Shown piece after piece: positions 7,190 through 17,130 of a stretch of DNA of 25,417 bases. The notes beneath the pieces are model-generated. The model had not been told where the DNA came from. It saw nothing but the letters and a program-made list of their open reading frames with translations, and did not search any database. Made by a program: the position numbers and the translations under genes. Position 1 is the first letter of the stretch; every line of letters starts with the position of its first letter. This DNA comes from a virus (lineage: Duplodnaviria > Heunggongvirae > Uroviricota > Caudoviricetes): IMG/VR virus record IMGVR_UViG_3300025121_000033. One strand, 5' to 3'.

Positions 7190-7789
7190 TTACTGTTGCG
7201 GAGGTCTCATCACTTCGCTGGCTAAATTATTAAACTTTCCCATTAGACCCGGCGCAGTGCCGCCGCCACTAGGAGGCGCGACAGGTGGCACCATTCCCAT
7301 AGTCGCAGGCGCGCCGCCAAGTTCAGGGCCTGGAGGAGGCAACTGGGCGCCAGTCGCGGCAGGCGCTTCGCCTTCCGGAGGTACGAAACCAGTAAGATTA
7401 TTAAACGCGATTTCGAACACTTCGAATAAATCGGGATCAGTTTCAGATAATTTTTCTAAGAACGCGCGCACTGATTCTGGATTTGCCGGATCAACACCAG
7501 CCTTCTTCATGATATCAAATAAGTCACGCAACAAACTGGAGCGTGCTTCATCAGTAATATTACTATCACTTATCTCTTTCGCTTTTAAGTTACTATTTTT
7601 GCTATTCAATTCAGCTGCCTTAGATTCTAAGTCAGCGACCATCTGCTCTTTGCTCATTGCGGAGGCTCCGCCTGGCATCGCCTCAACAGGGGGCATTTCA
7701 CCGCCCATCTGGGCGGCAGGCATCGGTGGCTGAGCGCCACCATTCTCTGACACTATTCTACCAACGTTCTGCGGTAATTTCATCGCCAT
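7190..7789 (-). CDS. Hypothetical protein with Pro/Gly/Met/Ala-rich termini and a helical core (199 aa)
   Basis: Track ORF; tiles with the 1015-aa gene (6-nt gap); TATATG start. Confidence 0.7.
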   Translation of the reverse strand: MAMKLPQNVGRIVSENGGAQPPMPAAQMGGEMPPVEAMPGGASAMSKEQMVADLESKAAELNSKNSNLKAKEISDSNITDEARSSLLRDLFDIMKKAGVDPANPESVRAFLEKLSETDPDLFEVFEIAFNNLTGFVPPEGEAPAATGAQLPPPGPELGGAPATMGMVPPVAPPSGGGTAPGLMGKFNNLASEVMRPPQQ

Positions 7790-7794
7790 ATATT

Positions 7795-10700
7795 TTATTG
7801 ATTATATTTAATATTTAAAGGATATAAACCAATACCGGCATAAGCGCTTAAAATTGCGCGTTCAGTCGCGGTAACGCGTGACTCTTTTGTAGATTTACCA
7901 ACTGGTGTTTTACCCTTAACAGCATAACCAACCTTTCTATACTTATAACTTGGGATATAAGGAAGCGCCACCTCAGGCGTCACTAACCCCAAACCGGCGA
8001 GGTTCGCTGGAAAGACAGTTTCACCAAGACTACGCGCAAAGTATCCAGCTTTCTGAGCGATAGTGGCATCTTGTGGATATAGCGGCTGATCGAAAATACC
8101 GGTTGGGTTTGTGTCACGCAATAAAATCGGGACAATAAAATAATCCGTAACTAACTGCCCTTCAGGAGTTTTCAATAGCGGAATCGAATCGATTATCTTA
8201 ACTATAGCACCACCGACTGTGTCTTCCGTGCGTCTCTCTGACGGTTCAAAGATATTCATCGTCATATGCGAAAAAAACGCGGCCATATTTATATACACAG
8301 GGCTATCTCTAAAAAACGGTATACTAACCATACCGTTCTCTTTCATCCAACTGTAGTATGGGGAATTCAAGGCATCTTTTTCAAGTGGGGAGCGACCGCC
8401 ATTCAGTTCATTAATCAAGAATTGAGCTTTATTAAAAAATGCCGGGTTATAAAGCGCGGTCTGCCCGGTCTTCGCGAGCATAGCGTAAGCAAAACTCGCA
8501 AACGGCATACCGACAAGAGGCATCGAGCGCATTACCTTAACAGCAGTCGGCATAGCGGCGTAGTTCATATAGACGTCACTCGCTACATCAGCAGCTTTTA
8601 AACCGCTAAATTTCCAACGATCAGTCCCGGTATCATGAAAAACATCAACACCGTACTGCACTGGATTAAATCTTTTTAATATCGTCAATTCTTTTTCAGT
8701 GATTCCATTTTTTACCAGATGCGCTGCCAAACCAAGTTTGTACGATTGGTCGGTAGCTTCGAAGAGGGACACCGGCTTATTAAAAACATAATCAAGCGCT
8801 TTGCCCCACAACTTCCCATCATCAGCTGCTTCTTTAGCGGCCGACATCATGTCTTTCCAATAACTTGCAGACCCTAGTTCTTGCGAAATATAAGTAGTCT
8901 CAAGTTCATTACCAGAAATTATTCCACGCTTTTCTAAATTTAATAAAAGTTCTTTTTTAGCTTGTTCGCGCAAACTTTCAAGTTCAACAGTATTAAGTGT
9001 CGGCATCTCCATCTCACGCAAATATTTTGTCATTACTTCGTGGAATCCCGCCTGCGGATTAGTTAATAAATCAGGCCTGATTTTAAATACAGCATAAAAC
9101 ACGTCAGGATAAACTTCAGCCAATTCTTTAAACTCAGGGTGGTTCATTAATTGCATCAAACTAACAGAAGTCTCGCCAGTGCCGAGGGCCTTAAGCGCAG
9201 CGCCAATACCGCTTTTCATTTCTCGCAAAAATCCAGGGTCAGCGATATTGATACCGTACATGTTTGTCATCACCGCGTTGTTCAGCATCGCGAGCGCTGT
9301 AGAAGAAAGTTGACCGATTTTAGTCGTCTTAAACATGTCGATAAAAGCGCGGTACCCCTTCATGATTTGTTCGCCTTTTAATTTATCTTTTACAATCCAC
9401 ATTTGAGAAAATTTACGCGCCGCGTCATCAAACGCTTTCCACCCTGTTTCCGGTTGCGCAAAATCTTTTAATTCGCGCAGTATCGATCGCGCCTCTTCCA
9501 TGGAAACGCCGGCGTCTTTTAATTCTTTAGCTCTTACCTTAATAGTCAAATCATCAAGGAATTCATTGGTTAAAAGATTTTTAAGTTGGTCATGGTCAAA
9601 GTTTTTAGCCTCAGAAGATAAACTCGTCATTAAATCACGCGCCTCGTCAAGAGTGTTCTCAGTACGCACCTTAGCGAATGTGCTTGGGCCCTTCATCATT
9701 GCTTCAAGTTCTTCTTTCGCCATGGCGAGTACATCTGTTTCAGTCGGCATAACACCAAAGCGGTCTCTCATCAAATCAGAAAGTTGTTGCGTCATTTCCT
9801 GCGGTGTTCCTTCGAGTCTATACGTATCACGGAGAGTGCCATCAGCGTCAGCCATAGTAGTCATAGTAGGGAATTTTGCTCTATCCTCTTTAACTATTTT
9901 CGATACCACACCTTTTTTCGCCTCGTGCCCCAACCACCCGCGCGCGCCACCGAGTTCTTGGTACTTAACAGCTTTTTCAGTGCGCTCAACTAAACGCTTA
10001 AAATAATCTTGCGGTGAATATTTAAAATATGAAGCAAATTTCCCGGCGAGTTCCGGGTTTGCGTCAGCCATCTTAGAAAAAACCATATCTGACGCGTTCT
10101 TAATTACGCCTGGGTCGCCTAAGAATTTCTCAGCCGTCCATCCAGTCGCAGCGCGGTACCCTTCTTTAGCTTCAGAAGCCGCGGTCTTTAAAGCCGAACG
10201 CGCTTGTACCACTTTAGGTATAGAAATAAAATCAGCGGGCTTTGTCACCGCTTTTGCAAAATTTAATCCTGTCATTTTTAAAGCCGAAGTCAATCCTTCT
10301 ACGCCGCCTTTGGTAGCACCAGTAAAAATTCGTGGAACGAGCGCTTGGCTTCCAAATGTCACCCAGTTTATTGGGTCAAGAGCAATATCGAGCGCAAGGC
10401 CACCCGCCAAAGCCGTAGGGCCGCTAGCCCCGTACTGTCTTAATAAATCGCCAAAAGTACCACCCTCCTCCATATTGGCTTTTATGTTAGCCAACCCTTT
10501 CTTAGTCCCTTTGCCTAAAGCAGCCTCAACGCCGCCAACAATACCATAAAGCGGTAGCCCTAAACCATGCAGTGCGCGATTAATAACCCCCTGTGGCTTT
10601 TTGCGTGGAGCCAATTCCTCTGCGCTTAAAACTTTTCCTTTATTCTTCGCCGCTTCGTCCTCATACCAGTTTTTCTGAATCTCTAAATCACGCGCACCAG

Positions 10701-10842
10701 TCTCTCGCGCCTTAATACGCGCTAACTGCTTACTCAAAGAGATATCAGAAGAAGACGGAGCTGTCCCAGTCCCGTAAGCAGTAGGCGAAGACTGTAATTT
10801 TTTCTCAATTTCTTTGCGCTGAGCCGAAAGAGTATCCGCCAT
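7795..10842 (-). CDS. Large protein (1015 aa), probable internal virion / DNA-ejection protein
   Basis: Ala/Gly-rich amphipathic N-terminal region with LALDIALDPINWVTFG and a C-terminal YAAMP...PLVGMPFASFAY segment, both reminiscent of podovirus ejection/large polyvalent proteins. No catalytic motif recognised. The CDS is certain; the function is inferred. Confidence 0.6.
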   Translation of the reverse strand: MADTLSAQRKEIEKKLQSSPTAYGTGTAPSSSDISLSKQLARIKARETGARDLEIQKNWYEDEAAKNKGKVLSAEELAPRKKPQGVINRALHGLGLPLYGIVGGVEAALGKGTKKGLANIKANMEEGGTFGDLLRQYGASGPTALAGGLALDIALDPINWVTFGSQALVPRIFTGATKGGVEGLTSALKMTGLNFAKAVTKPADFISIPKVVQARSALKTAASEAKEGYRAATGWTAEKFLGDPGVIKNASDMVFSKMADANPELAGKFASYFKYSPQDYFKRLVERTEKAVKYQELGGARGWLGHEAKKGVVSKIVKEDRAKFPTMTTMADADGTLRDTYRLEGTPQEMTQQLSDLMRDRFGVMPTETDVLAMAKEELEAMMKGPSTFAKVRTENTLDEARDLMTSLSSEAKNFDHDQLKNLLTNEFLDDLTIKVRAKELKDAGVSMEEARSILRELKDFAQPETGWKAFDDAARKFSQMWIVKDKLKGEQIMKGYRAFIDMFKTTKIGQLSSTALAMLNNAVMTNMYGINIADPGFLREMKSGIGAALKALGTGETSVSLMQLMNHPEFKELAEVYPDVFYAVFKIRPDLLTNPQAGFHEVMTKYLREMEMPTLNTVELESLREQAKKELLLNLEKRGIISGNELETTYISQELGSASYWKDMMSAAKEAADDGKLWGKALDYVFNKPVSLFEATDQSYKLGLAAHLVKNGITEKELTILKRFNPVQYGVDVFHDTGTDRWKFSGLKAADVASDVYMNYAAMPTAVKVMRSMPLVGMPFASFAYAMLAKTGQTALYNPAFFNKAQFLINELNGGRSPLEKDALNSPYYSWMKENGMVSIPFFRDSPVYINMAAFFSHMTMNIFEPSERRTEDTVGGAIVKIIDSIPLLKTPEGQLVTDYFIVPILLRDTNPTGIFDQPLYPQDATIAQKAGYFARSLGETVFPANLAGLGLVTPEVALPYIPSYKYRKVGYAVKGKTPVGKSTKESRVTATERAILSAYAGIGLYPLNIKYNQ

Positions 10843-12360: not shown

Positions 12361-12382
12361 TGTGCCCGTCGCTACTCTCTTT

Positions 12383-12413
12383 TGGACAGTGTCACCACTG
12401 TCCGTTATAAAAT
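12383..12413 (+). promoter_or_regulatory. Sigma70-like promoter for the plus block, with an overlapping perfect dyad
   Basis: TGGACA(12383-88)-17nt-TATAAA(12406-11), or 19 nt to TAAAAT(12408-13); dyad GGACAGTG-TCAC-CACTGTCC at 12384-12403; ATG at 12427. Confidence 0.55.
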
Positions 12414-12769: not shown

Positions 12770-12813
12770 CGCGACTACTATCTTTTGGTAATTTAATAAT
12801 TAACTTTAATCAT

Positions 12814-13068
12814 ATGGCATCAGTCCAAACACCAGACGCAAAAAAGCAATACCCAGAAATGGAACGCACATTCGTCGGCAGAGGCTGGCAGAATAAAACT
12901 CAAGATGGCCGTGAGTTTATCAATTTACGCATTGACAGAGGAGTCGCCGCGCAGGTTGATGAGACTTGCCAATTTCAGTTATGGCCAAACAAGAAACGTG
13001 AAGGCAAAAAAGATGCTGATTTCCGCCTCAGCATTCTTATTCCGAAATCAGCGGTAGCACAAGCTTAA
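12814..13068 (+). CDS. DUF736-like small beta protein
   Basis: VGRGWQNKTQDGREFINLRID...FQLWPNKKREGKKDADFRLSI follows the DUF736 pattern (iGaaW...G..YlSl.lD ... l..n.......PDyr). Confidence 0.65.
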   Translation: MASVQTPDAKKQYPEMERTFVGRGWQNKTQDGREFINLRIDRGVAAQVDETCQFQLWPNKKREGKKDADFRLSILIPKSAVAQA

Positions 13069-13075
13069 TGCTTGG

Positions 13076-13111
13076 GGAGGCAGTAGAGTTATTCTACTGC
13101 CTTCTTTTTTT
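13076..13111 (+). terminator. Rho-independent terminator
   Basis: GGAGGCAGTAGA-GTTAT-TCTACTGCCTTC (12 bp, one GU) followed by T7, 8 nt after the stop. Confidence 0.85.
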
Positions 13112-13140
13112 CAACGTCCGTGCGTGTTCGCTACTTTCTT

Positions 13141-13525
13141 TTGCGTGGTGATCAAACCACTCTGCCTGAACTATAGTTCGGACGGAAAACTTCATCACGC
13201 AACTTAAGCTAACAAGCGCGGGTGCATCTTAAACGGGAAAGATGCTTAAATCACCTTCCTCTTCTCGCCATTTGCAACGTTAGTGCCCTTTGATGGGACT
13301 GAAACAGTGGAGACTAAGGAGAATGACTCAGGAGCCTGCGCTTCGAAGCTTTTTAATTTGATAATTTACCTTAAGAGGGTATGTCCGCCGTTCGACTCGG
13401 CAGGCAGGGTGTGAATGAAATAATATTGTTGTGTGCCCAAGTTTAACGAGAAATGGGGTACATTTAAATATCTCGTTTGGCGATATTATTTGTCAGTCAT
13501 TCTGGCACACACCTCCTTGGGCAAG
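13141..13525 (+). ncRNA. Unassigned large structured RNA or structured leader (~385 nt)
   Basis: ORF-free region with consecutive helical domains whose GU pairs work on the + strand; includes a TTCGACT T-loop hairpin at 13387-13401 (see findings). Confidence 0.6.
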
Positions 13526-13548
13526 TTATCAATAATTTATTTTTAATT

Positions 13549-13725
13549 ATGAAAGAATTAATAAACTTAATAAATCAAATTGGCACAATTAATATCCAAC
13601 GCGGCCTCACAGTTGAAGTTAAGATATTAGATGTCAGAAAATCATACGGTAAAATTCAATACCAAGTATCCCCCACCCGCGGAAGCGGAGCGACGTGGGT
13701 TGAAAATGTTAACGATATAAAATAA
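13549..13725 (+). CDS. Small hypothetical phage protein (58 aa)
   Basis: Track ORF 13477..13725; start moved to ATG 13549 (MKELINL); VKILDVRKSYGKIQYQVSP beta-rich motif. Confidence 0.7.
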   Translation: MKELINLINQIGTINIQRGLTVEVKILDVRKSYGKIQYQVSPTRGSGATWVENVNDIK

Positions 13726-15525: not shown

Positions 15526-17130
15526 ATGCATAAACCATTTCCGTTTACGCTGGGGGCCGACCCAGAATTTAACGTTGTAATCAATAATCGGAAAGCCAAC
15601 GCCCACACTTTAATCCAAGCTGTGCTATCAAAAGAATACAAAGCCACCAGCATGGGCTTTGACATTAACGGTAAAGCCAATATCGGCTGGGACGGATGCG
15701 ATTCCACCGGAGAAATTAGACCATCGCCCGCCAATACACCACACGAAATCGTAGAGAATTTACGCGCAGCATTCCAAGCAGTGACAGCCAAAGTAGCCAT
15801 CTTTGACTTTATCACTCACTCCAAACGCGCTCCAGTCGGTGGCCATATCCACTTACTCTTAGCACAGGGTACAACTGACGCGAAACTCAGAACCATTCAC
15901 AATTGCATGAGCGCATTTTATATGCCGCTCTTACTTTGTGAAGATATCATCAACATGAAATTACGAGTTAAAGACTACGGATTACTCAGCGACTATCGCA
16001 CTCAGAATGTCAGCCAAAATATCACCACATATGAATTCAGAGCACCAAGTGCTGAATGGCTGACAACGCCTAAAATCGCCGAAGCCACACTCGCTTACAT
16101 GGGCACAATCTATCACGAAATATTAAAAAACGGCCCGGAGAAATTCGCTAAAGAATTTAAACATGTCGTCTGGAAAAATGGCAGTCAAGCCGACACCATG
16201 CAACAATTATTCTTAAACGAATTCACTTGCCCAATTGAGAGCATGCTCAAGACCATTACTAAAGCCGTGAAGAAATTTGAGTACTACAAAGAATATAAAC
16301 AAGAAATAGATTATCTCTTACGCCCCAAGACCGTGCTCAAAGATAAACACAACGCCAGTTTCAACATCATGACAGGATGGAAATTAAATCCGCGCCAGCC
16401 GAGTAAGAAAAATCTGCTCAACCAAAAAGCCACAAAGAAGAAAGCCGAAGACATCAACATGGATTTATTTTCTAAAGCCATCAGCCTCCAATTTAATGAG
16501 GATAAGAATGTCGCCTTATTTGCAGAGGATTTCAAAGACAAGATTATCGCGCATGGCTGGAAATTAAAGAACGCTTATTATTTCTACGGGCTCAAAAAAG
16601 GGGTTGAGAAATATTTAGTGTTTAACAAATCCAACGAATGCTTCTACCATGGCGGACAAATCCAAACCGTCGAAGACGCAGTGGCGATTTCTGAAGTAGT
16701 CAAACGCATGAGCCAGAGATTCGAACTCGAAGGCACCATTAACGCCAAAGACAAAAAAGAACAAGCTGATAGACACATCCTTGTCGGCATCCCATACCAA
16801 GTCCGAATCGATCAGGATTTCAAATCACTAGTCTCTCTAGTCTATGACATCGAACACGGGACACTTAAACCGGCGCCGATCGAGCAAAAGAATTTAGTAA
16901 TGCACGCCACAACAAGTGGAAAAAATAGAATTGCGACTCCAGTCGCTGATGCTTATAAAGGAAGTAGCCCGATGCCAATCGAAGCAGAAAGTGGCAACTC
17001 CGCGCTAAGATGTGAAATAGACACCAGAGATAGACTAGAAATGGATCATGGCATACGGCTTGAAAGTCCAGGCATATTTATCGGGCCAAACACACCACTT
17101 CATATCCTACCCGGAGAAGCAGCATTTTAA
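15526..17130 (+). CDS. phiEco32-like COOH-NH2 ligase type 2 (amidoligase) with a long C-terminal extension
   Basis: N-terminal FTLGADPEF, GEIRPSP, GGHIH and YEFRAPS motifs of the glutamine-synthetase-fold amidoligase; 534 aa. Confidence 0.85.
   Translation: MHKPFPFTLGADPEFNVVINNRKANAHTLIQAVLSKEYKATSMGFDINGKANIGWDGCDSTGEIRPSPANTPHEIVENLRAAFQAVTAKVAIFDFITHSKRAPVGGHIHLLLAQGTTDAKLRTIHNCMSAFYMPLLLCEDIINMKLRVKDYGLLSDYRTQNVSQNITTYEFRAPSAEWLTTPKIAEATLAYMGTIYHEILKNGPEKFAKEFKHVVWKNGSQADTMQQLFLNEFTCPIESMLKTITKAVKKFEYYKEYKQEIDYLLRPKTVLKDKHNASFNIMTGWKLNPRQPSKKNLLNQKATKKKAEDINMDLFSKAISLQFNEDKNVALFAEDFKDKIIAHGWKLKNAYYFYGLKKGVEKYLVFNKSNECFYHGGQIQTVEDAVAISEVVKRMSQRFELEGTINAKDKKEQADRHILVGIPYQVRIDQDFKSLVSLVYDIEHGTLKPAPIEQKNLVMHATTSGKNRIATPVADAYKGSSPMPIEAESGNSALRCEIDTRDRLEMDHGIRLESPGIFIGPNTPLHILPGEAAF

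Follow-up and report, generated by a model that had tools for sequence, protein, structure and literature searches.

What is encoded by the long gene-free stretch at the junction of the structural and early modules of a phage known only from metagenomes? We examined positions 13141-13525 of a 25,417-nt stretch of tailed-phage DNA (IMG/VR record IMGVR_UViG_3300025121_000033; hereafter the window), where an earlier note had read one densely structured RNA of ~385 nt, built of four consecutive domains (D1 to D4) and lying ahead of an early-type operon. We find that this flagged stretch is two things: a conserved RNA of 175 nt (13358-13532, + strand; hereafter the element) and a set of phage-specific hairpins on its 5' side. 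The conserved family and its fold are very probably real, and the element recurs in phages that have no proteins in common with the window.

The conserved element and its fold

The element is closed on itself. An outer stem, P0 continued by P1, leads into a three-way junction, from which arise the T-arm P2 and a second branch in which P3 is stacked on a small hairpin (Table 1). A pseudoknot forms between the loop of the small hairpin and the linker that follows P3, and a hairpin of variable length (P5) is inserted between the two; in the shortest members P5 shrinks to 3 bp and a tetraloop. The closing stem brings the two ends of the element together.

This architecture revises the domains first proposed. 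All helices named in the earlier note are present where it placed them, and the minimum free energy (MFE) fold reproduces them, but D3 and D4 prove to be parts of one element rather than separate consecutive domains. D3 is the inner part of P2, and D4, taken for one long hairpin, is really P3, a 5-bp pseudoknot, the variable hairpin and the small hairpin. The 14-bp outer stem that encloses them had been missed; it ends at 13532, 7 nt past the end of the flagged stretch.

Support for the fold comes from alignment A2, which holds seven sequences and 48 pairs (336 pair cells); controls were made by sliding the 3' partners by 1-3 columns. Standard pairs fill 96.4% of the cells, against 37-46% in the slid controls, and two-sided changes are found in 18 of the 48 pairs, against 3-6. 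Neither value is reached in any of 500 shuffles. Covariation is strongest in P0, the pseudoknot and the base of P5, with double changes also in P2 and the small hairpin (Table 1). The pseudoknot, for example, occurs as AAUGA/UCAUU, AAUCC/GGAUU, AUACC/GGUAU and AGAG/CUCU. P1 varies on one side only and P3 does not vary, so both of these helices rest on thermodynamics and context. In the window copy every helix can form, the exceptions to standard pairing being one A.C (P0) and one C.A (P2). Folded by itself (13357-13536), it gives the same nested helices at the MFE, with a z-score against dinucleotide shuffles of -4.35 (-4.06 on the - strand). The full 385 nt likewise fold better than shuffled sequence (13141-13525; z -3.84 with an MFE of -123.7 kcal/mol on the + strand, z -3.24 on the - strand), as the claim of a structured RNA had implied. 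For the 3' 175 nt that claim is borne out further, since the stems are kept in all seven sequences with two-sided changes.

The pairing is that of a + strand transcript. G-U cells number 47 and A-C cells nine, and pairing falls from 96.4% on the + strand to 85.1% for the mirrored - strand; the earlier argument that G-U wobbles mark the + strand thus holds for the conserved element. The window copy has stops in all three + frames, and the lengths of the members (128, 128, 129, 136, 153, 172, and 189 nt) do not differ by multiples of three. Therefore, what is conserved is a + strand RNA structure, neither a coding region nor a DNA palindrome. A reading of TTGATA at 13359 together with TATGTC as a -35/-10 promoter was rejected, since in every member TTGATAA and its 3' partner TTATCAA covary as the two strands of P0.

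P2 resembles the T-arm of tRNA. In tRNA, the T-loop consensus is G53-T54-Psi55-C56-R57-A58-N-Y-C61. The P2 loop and its closing pair (G-UUCGACU-C) match this consensus exactly and are invariant in seven of seven sequences, while the C.A mismatch of the P2 stem becomes U.G in one member. A second run of constant letters, CACCUCCU, is likewise invariant in all seven members and is followed by (U) in the window. There, positions 13510-13518 read CACCUCCUU and lie within the 3' strands of P3 and P1, where all of them are paired. We take the same letters to be the 3' tail of 16S rRNA, its anti-Shine-Dalgarno region; the likeness of CACCUCCU to that tail may be a coincidence.

Table 1. Features of the flagged stretch and its borders (window coordinates; pairing statistics from alignment A2)
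Feature	Position	Strand	Basis and remarks
P0, 5' strand of the outer closing stem, pairs with 13519-13532	13358-13371	+	14 pairs, 8 with two-sided changes; 7 sequences; 96.9% of cells paired
3-nt bulge	13372-13374	+	UAA here, mostly GUA elsewhere; last A invariant; alignment A2
P1, 5' strand GAGGG, pairs with UCCUU 13514-13518	13375-13379	+	100% of cells paired; 2 pairs swap G-U with G-C or A-U
Linker UAU between P1 and P2	after 13379	+	alignment A2
P2, 8-bp arm, 7-nt loop UUCGACU (13391-13397) closed by G-C	13383-13405	+	G-C to A-U double changes at 2 pairs
P3, 5' strand GGUGUG, pairs with CACACC 13508-13513	13408-13413	+	6 unvarying pairs, no covariation information; helix in MFE fold
Pseudoknot, 5' strand AAUGA, pairs with UCAUU 13497-13501 (loop of small hairpin)	13414-13418	+	two-sided changes in 4 of 5 pairs
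P5, variable-length hairpin, 72 nt here	13419-13490	+	stem base: double changes in 3 of 4 pairs
Small hairpin UGUCAG-UCAUU-CUGGCA, loop makes the pseudoknot	13491-13507	+	97.6% paired; in one member G-C to A-U and U-G to U-A
3' strands of P3, P1 and P0	13508-13532	+	sequence and alignment A2
D1, 11-bp stem around an inner hairpin, phage-specific	13141-13202	+	MFE fold; no homologue in any fetched locus
D2, long-range stem 13206-13223/13334-13350 around a branched domain, short U run after	13206-13354	+	MFE fold
Intrinsic terminator of the upstream 84-aa gene; left edge of the non-coding stretch	13074-13106	+	15-bp stem, then T run
Recurrent motif GCTACTNTCTTTT, candidate promoter or start signal	13130-13142	+	copies with at most 1 mismatch at 12371, 12774, 13130
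First open reading frame (ORF) after the RNA, 58 aa, no known family	13549-13725	+	16 nt past the end of P0; called as a gene on sister contigs

Distribution and genomic contexts of the family

The element recurs in six other contigs: the phage contigs L016, L025, L080, L081, and L083, and the chromosome of a Blastocatellia metagenome-assembled genome (L084). L016 and L025 were reached through the 84-aa protein encoded upstream of the flagged stretch; pattern scans of IMG/VR (L080, L081, and L083) and of 185,579 genomes (L084) added four new members in total. Although the 84-aa protein of L016 and L025 is only 63% and 38% identical to that of the window, respectively, ~35 letters around the T-loop hairpin and ~25 at the 3' end of D4 are almost unchanged. 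Long letter-identical blocks are common to the copies of the element despite their diverged neighbours.

We built a covariance model (R1) from the seven members of alignment A2, the window included. Members score 123-138 bits and the best non-member 23.5 bits. The window holds a single copy at 13352-13539 (+ strand), which covers model positions 1-136 and scores 128.4 bits; since the window is among the training sequences, this match is partly by construction, and the independent evidence is the alignment itself.

The genomes around the copies have little in common. L080, L081, L083, and L084 share no proteins with the window; shared upstream genes are seen only among the three contigs of the window phage's clade, and the other neighbours are unrelated. 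The ORFs downstream of the seven copies encode unrelated small proteins, and the carriers differ in genes, in ribosome-binding-site style and in GC content. GGAGG sites, for instance, are present in L081 and L083, unlike in the window.

The placement of the copies follows one main pattern. In the window, L016, L025, L081, and L083, an ORF on the same strand starts 14-35 nt past the end of the element; in L025 and L016, one or two further ORFs precede the element. In L080, ~100 nt and another closed structure lie between the element and the next ORF. This second stem-loop (L080:~7690-7755, + strand; GGGTACAG ... CTGTACCC) stands directly after the element and gives a 13-bit, chance-level match to a tymovirus model. 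In L084, the element sits in a 1.1-kb chromosomal spacer; the flanking genes, one moeA-like and one unknown, lie on the opposite strand, and downstream of the element there is no co-oriented ORF of at least 45 aa. PADLOC and NCBIfam return nothing on the unknown genes beside this copy. Only one of 151 Blastocatellia genomes carries the element, which rules it out as a host core gene. This distribution suggests that the element is mobile or sporadic in occurrence.

Two associations were also dropped. The phage that carries the L081 copy is 115 kb long and has 29 tRNA genes; this copy lies ~30 nt upstream of a 64-aa ORF that is followed by a gene for the RNA ligase RtcB. A link to tRNA clusters was rejected, as two other carriers have none. 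A link to RNA repair was rejected, as RtcB stands beside one copy only and no TROVE protein is found in the L080, L081, and L083 records. The RtcB gene itself (L081:4975-7104, - strand; record G153) is split by an intein with an HNH endonuclease domain.

The family is uncatalogued, and its carriers are mostly uncultivated phages. It is absent from Rfam 15, and was not compared with the 10,006 candidate structured RNAs of PMC10690425. No Rfam 15 family reaches its gathering score; searches at E<=10 over 12950-13700 return only chance matches far below threshold, and searches of eight related loci (at gathering score) and of the shortest member (at E<=10) return nothing relevant. A blastn search of the region and two short members against 50,697 GenBank phages gives no match, and a full-text literature search for the conserved words gives chance matches in unrelated papers only. 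When spurious ORFs across the element were used for a profile search of 1.84 billion proteins, three matches were returned, with many short stretches matched and none of them spanning the element. Thus, the earlier proposal of an undescribed phage RNA stands for the 3' 175 nt, which are conserved, covarying and without an Rfam match, and does not extend to the remainder of the stretch.

Two sets of sequences outside the seven members resemble the element. A GC-rich group from IMG/VR (L029, L030, L034, L043, L049, L053, L054, L056, L067, and L073) has ~80 conserved letters in common among its own members, around CCGCCGTTCGACTCGG. The T-arm there is near-identical to that of the element, including the same C.A mismatch; only the T-arm matches R1, and there is no Rfam match. 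This group is possibly a sister family. A GC-rich sequence of ~94 nt (L027:5917-6010, - strand; identical in L035), made up of a closing stem, one hairpin and a T-arm, gives a weak, full-length R1 match (23.5 bits). A tRNA gene follows it immediately, and the sequence is possibly a pared-down relative of the family.

Resemblances to known RNAs and possible roles

Nearest to the element in idea are the tRNA T-arm and the YrlA-type Y RNAs of bacteria and phages. The likeness to the T-arm model (RF00005) is letter for letter in the loop; the stem, by comparison, has 8 bp with a C.A mismatch against 5 bp in tRNA, and the element lacks an acceptor stem, a D-arm, an anticodon arm and a CCA end. ARAGORN finds no tRNA or tmRNA genes in the window, and Rfam gives no tRNA or tmRNA match even at E<=10. 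The earlier note was right that the cores of tmRNA and the known large phage RNAs are absent: no Rfam match to GOLLD or ROOL, nor to hammerhead, twister, HDV-like, pistol or hatchet ribozymes, is found in the window and eight related loci.

YrlA RNAs are, like the element, modular, with a long end-closing stem and a tRNA-like T-arm (Chen et al. 2014, PMC4201824), and they also occur in phages (PMC4201824). The T-arm-like stem-loop expected of a YrlA RNA is present as P2, with its loop UUCGACU. In Salmonella, rtcB belongs to an RNA-repair operon that also encodes YrlA (PMC4201824); the L081 copy of the element, and only this one, lies upstream of an RtcB gene. However, YrlA also features a D-arm-like stem-loop and a GNCGAAN0-1G motif near its 5' end (PMC4201824), and neither occurs in the element in alignment A2. 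After the T-arm, the element has its pseudoknot branch, whereas YrlA has acceptor-like and D-like hairpins. No Ro60/TROVE protein is encoded in the L080, L081, and L083 records or among ten scanned window ORFs (the rest of the ~90-kb genome was not searched), whereas a YrlA gene would be expected within ~4 kb of a Ro60 gene on the same strand. On its defining features, membership in YrlA fails.

A T-arm combined with a pseudoknot in a viral RNA is also seen in the tRNA-like structures of plant viruses (Tymovirus, RF00233). Those structures are whole-tRNA mimics with a CCA end, located at the 3' terminus, whereas the element is internal and self-closed and has no acceptor end. Rfam gives no significant Tymovirus match, and the 13-bit match in L080 lies outside the element. 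A screen of more than 5 million viral sequences proposed its 10,006 candidate structured RNAs, many of them tRNA-like (Fremin, Bhatt and Kyrpides 2023, PMC10690425); it drew on IMG/VR, from which three of the element's carriers come.

We favour the reading that the element is a portable, self-contained, tRNA-mimicking RNA module in an uncatalogued phage family, and judge this statement, taken as a whole, to lie just on the probable side. Such a module is preferred to a gene-specific riboswitch because the neighbours differ from copy to copy and one copy has no downstream gene. Near-invariant helices and a T-arm across differing phages suggest recognition by a partner present in many hosts. The likeliest partner would be a T-arm-reading factor or another part of the translation or tRNA-processing machinery. 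The RNA could serve as a mimic, decoy or scaffold, and would bind protein or ribosome as an independent module. That it acts in trans as a tRNA mimic is a more tentative claim, which we hold to be possible but short of probable. Mimicry of a whole tRNA is excluded, since there is no D-arm-like partner for the T-loop and no CCA acceptor-like end.

Several points weigh against the module. There are only seven distinct members, and no protein family co-occurs with the RNA, RtcB being found at one copy only and TROVE/Ro60 at none of those scanned. The missing D-arm-like partner and CCA acceptor-like end tell against mimicry too. The ends of the RNA, its processing and its transcription itself are all read from sequence, and D1 and D2 have no comparative support. 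Furthermore, five of the seven copies end 14-35 nt before a start codon, a position that fits a cis-acting role as well.

A bolder form of the module, which we regard as unlikely, is a host-takeover RNA that offers its T-arm and the CACCUCCU strand to the host's translation or tRNA-processing and repair machinery. Such an RNA would redirect or protect early translation in hosts that range from Shine-Dalgarno-less bacteria to Acidobacteriota.

Phage structured RNAs that lack assigned roles, such as GOLLD, ROOL, tRNA-like genes and Y-RNA-like RNAs, are an open problem. The element adds near letter-for-letter conservation across phages without shared genes, and its T-arm and pseudoknot together match no catalogued family. 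Should its partner be a universal host factor, the element would represent a new RNA-based phage action on translation or tRNA metabolism; were it a riboswitch or a ribozyme instead, it would be a new class. The shortest members (~125 nt) are small enough for probing, crystallisation and pull-down. For annotation, the element accounts for a 175-nt gene-free stretch and provides a covariance model for finding more copies.

That the element is a cis-acting leader is rather unlikely. As a riboswitch, a protein-binding operator or a structure that controls translation, such a leader would govern how strongly the ORF behind it is expressed, for instance with P0 opening and closing near the ribosome landing site. 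The co-orientation with an ORF that begins shortly downstream in five phage contigs is what such a role predicts, and the compact, pseudoknotted fold with its invariant core letters is aptamer-like. In L084, as read from the sequence, the 3' strand of P0 can also pair downstream, giving a possible alternative hairpin. In being structured, early, co-oriented and located within early operons, the element also resembles HK022 put and other cis-acting antitermination RNAs; it has no sequence or structural likeness to put, however, and one copy is chromosomal without an operon downstream. Against a leader, it counts that the downstream genes are mutually unrelated, that L084 has no co-oriented ORF and that in L080 the next ORF is ~100 nt off behind another structure. 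Downstream of the element there is neither a terminator nor a sequestered ribosome-binding site, and in the window and L016 there is no Shine-Dalgarno sequence that could be sequestered. Moreover, nearly all conserved nucleotides are paired, which leaves few for a ligand pocket. Neither a consistent class of downstream genes nor a recognisable expression platform, as expected of riboswitches generally, was found. The leader proposed in the earlier note is possible by position, with the element ending 16 nt before the ATG at 13549, and is weakened by its unrelated downstream genes and the lack of a recognised expression platform.

It is improbable that D1 and D2 belong with the conserved element to a single large functional RNA or multi-domain leader of ~385-400 nt. 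The stretch is contiguous and without a credible ORF, it beats shuffles as a whole (z -3.84), and a candidate start signal lies just ahead of D1. Yet neither D1 nor D2 has a homologue in any other carrier of the element or any fetched locus, so the single ~385-nt RNA first proposed is not supported; the element has a 14-bp closing stem to itself and is found elsewhere without D1 and D2. D1 and D2 alone (13110-13356) beat shuffles only moderately (z -3.10 on the + strand, -1.83 on the - strand), and the sister contigs, being 100% identical, offer no covariation to compare. D2 with the U run after it resembles a terminator only weakly (site at 13331-13344).

Two related loci bear on the same question. 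Long gene-free stretches occupy the same slot, after a DUF736-like gene, in L012 (491-875) and L002 (5345-6095), and are strongly structured on the + strand (z -5.85 and -6.59, respectively, against -2.85 and -4.22 on the - strand). This could speak for a large RNA in the slot; but the two stretches have no sequence likeness to the window, no R1 match and no Rfam match. They may be further undescribed RNAs. Thus, phages of this clade seem to gather structured RNAs in the slot, though not a single homologous one. D1 and D2 are most likely a leader structure private to this phage.

Still less probable is a signal for processing or stability: a new self-cleaving ribozyme, a target of RNase P or RNase Z recognised through the T-arm, or a protective 5' fold. 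The element's T-arm is of the kind that tRNA-processing enzymes read. In Mycobacterium smegmatis, RNase P cuts a YrlA RNA that bears a T-arm (PMC4201824). The element is intercistronic among arrays of small ORFs in five phage contigs, and it combines a compact pseudoknot with invariant helices, as small ribozymes do. However, the acceptor stem is named as a major determinant for RNase P (PMC4201824), and the element has neither a 7-bp acceptor-like stem stacked on the T-arm nor a CCA. No known ribozyme family matches, and an element of pure stability would not need such sequence conservation.

That the stretch acts as DNA, as a replication origin, packaging site or hairpin promoter, is scarcely credible, for although the - strand also beats shuffles (z -3.24 and -4.06) and the stretch sits at the junction of the structural and early modules, the pairing is strand-specific (47 G-U against nine A-C cells, 96.4% against 85.1%), a pseudoknot and a T-loop are present, copies of the element lie in co-oriented gene arrays, at positions that vary from genome to genome, and one is carried by a bacterial chromosome, and there are neither iterons nor an AT-rich unwinding pattern.

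Transcription signals and gene order around the element

The window phage is ~90 kb and is known only from metagenome assemblies, of groundwater and other sources. The - strand of the window carries the structural genes, among them those for portal and large terminase, and an array of small ORFs on the + strand begins at ~12427; the flagged stretch stands where these structural and early modules meet. On its left is the strong terminator that follows the 84-aa gene, on its right the ATG at 13549. The small-ORF array leads to a phiEco32-type COOH-NH2 ligase (15526-17130) and then to an amidotransferase-like gene. Six fetched sister contigs are 100% identical to the window across 13060-13560, and gene callers place no genes inside the flagged stretch on any of them.

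A + strand transcript would run from just after the terminator through D1, D2, and the element into the small early-type ORFs. The motif GCTACTNTCTTTT may be a clade-specific promoter or start signal, to judge from its recurrence: its three best copies, GCTACTNTCTTTT(G) at 12371-12383, 12774-12786, and 13130-13142, are all on the + strand, each ahead of a + strand unit, and a short hairpin comes right after copies 1 and 3. At up to two mismatches there are 12 matches, against 3.3 expected. Similar words occur at matching places in L016 (~2913 and ~3283) and L002 (~5243). If GCTACTNTCTTTT is the start signal, the transcript would begin at ~13143, within the first base pairs of D1.

The 84-aa protein (12814-13068, + strand) is encoded on 16 contigs. 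It is conserved in a wide clade of groundwater phages, where it opens the early region and served as synteny anchor. It has a weak DUF736 match and invariant F20, G22, W25, N27, NKKREG and DAD. On the structural side, a 1015-aa ORF (7795-10842, - strand) lies between the structural genes and an HU-like gene and has no Pfam or PHROG match. In the early array, an 81-aa downstream ORF has no relatives among the sequences searched. The ligase has no tblastn match in the 50,697 GenBank phages; its nearest relative, at 84% identity, is on a 2.6-kb contig that ends short of the flagged region.

No Shine-Dalgarno sequence stands ahead of the ORF at 13549. AT-rich words, such as TTTAATCATATG or TAATTATG, precede this start and those at 12814, 13730, 13980, and others, all likewise without a Shine-Dalgarno sequence. 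These AT-rich, Shine-Dalgarno-free starts suggest a host whose ribosomes do without Shine-Dalgarno pairing, such as a Bacteroidota-like one.

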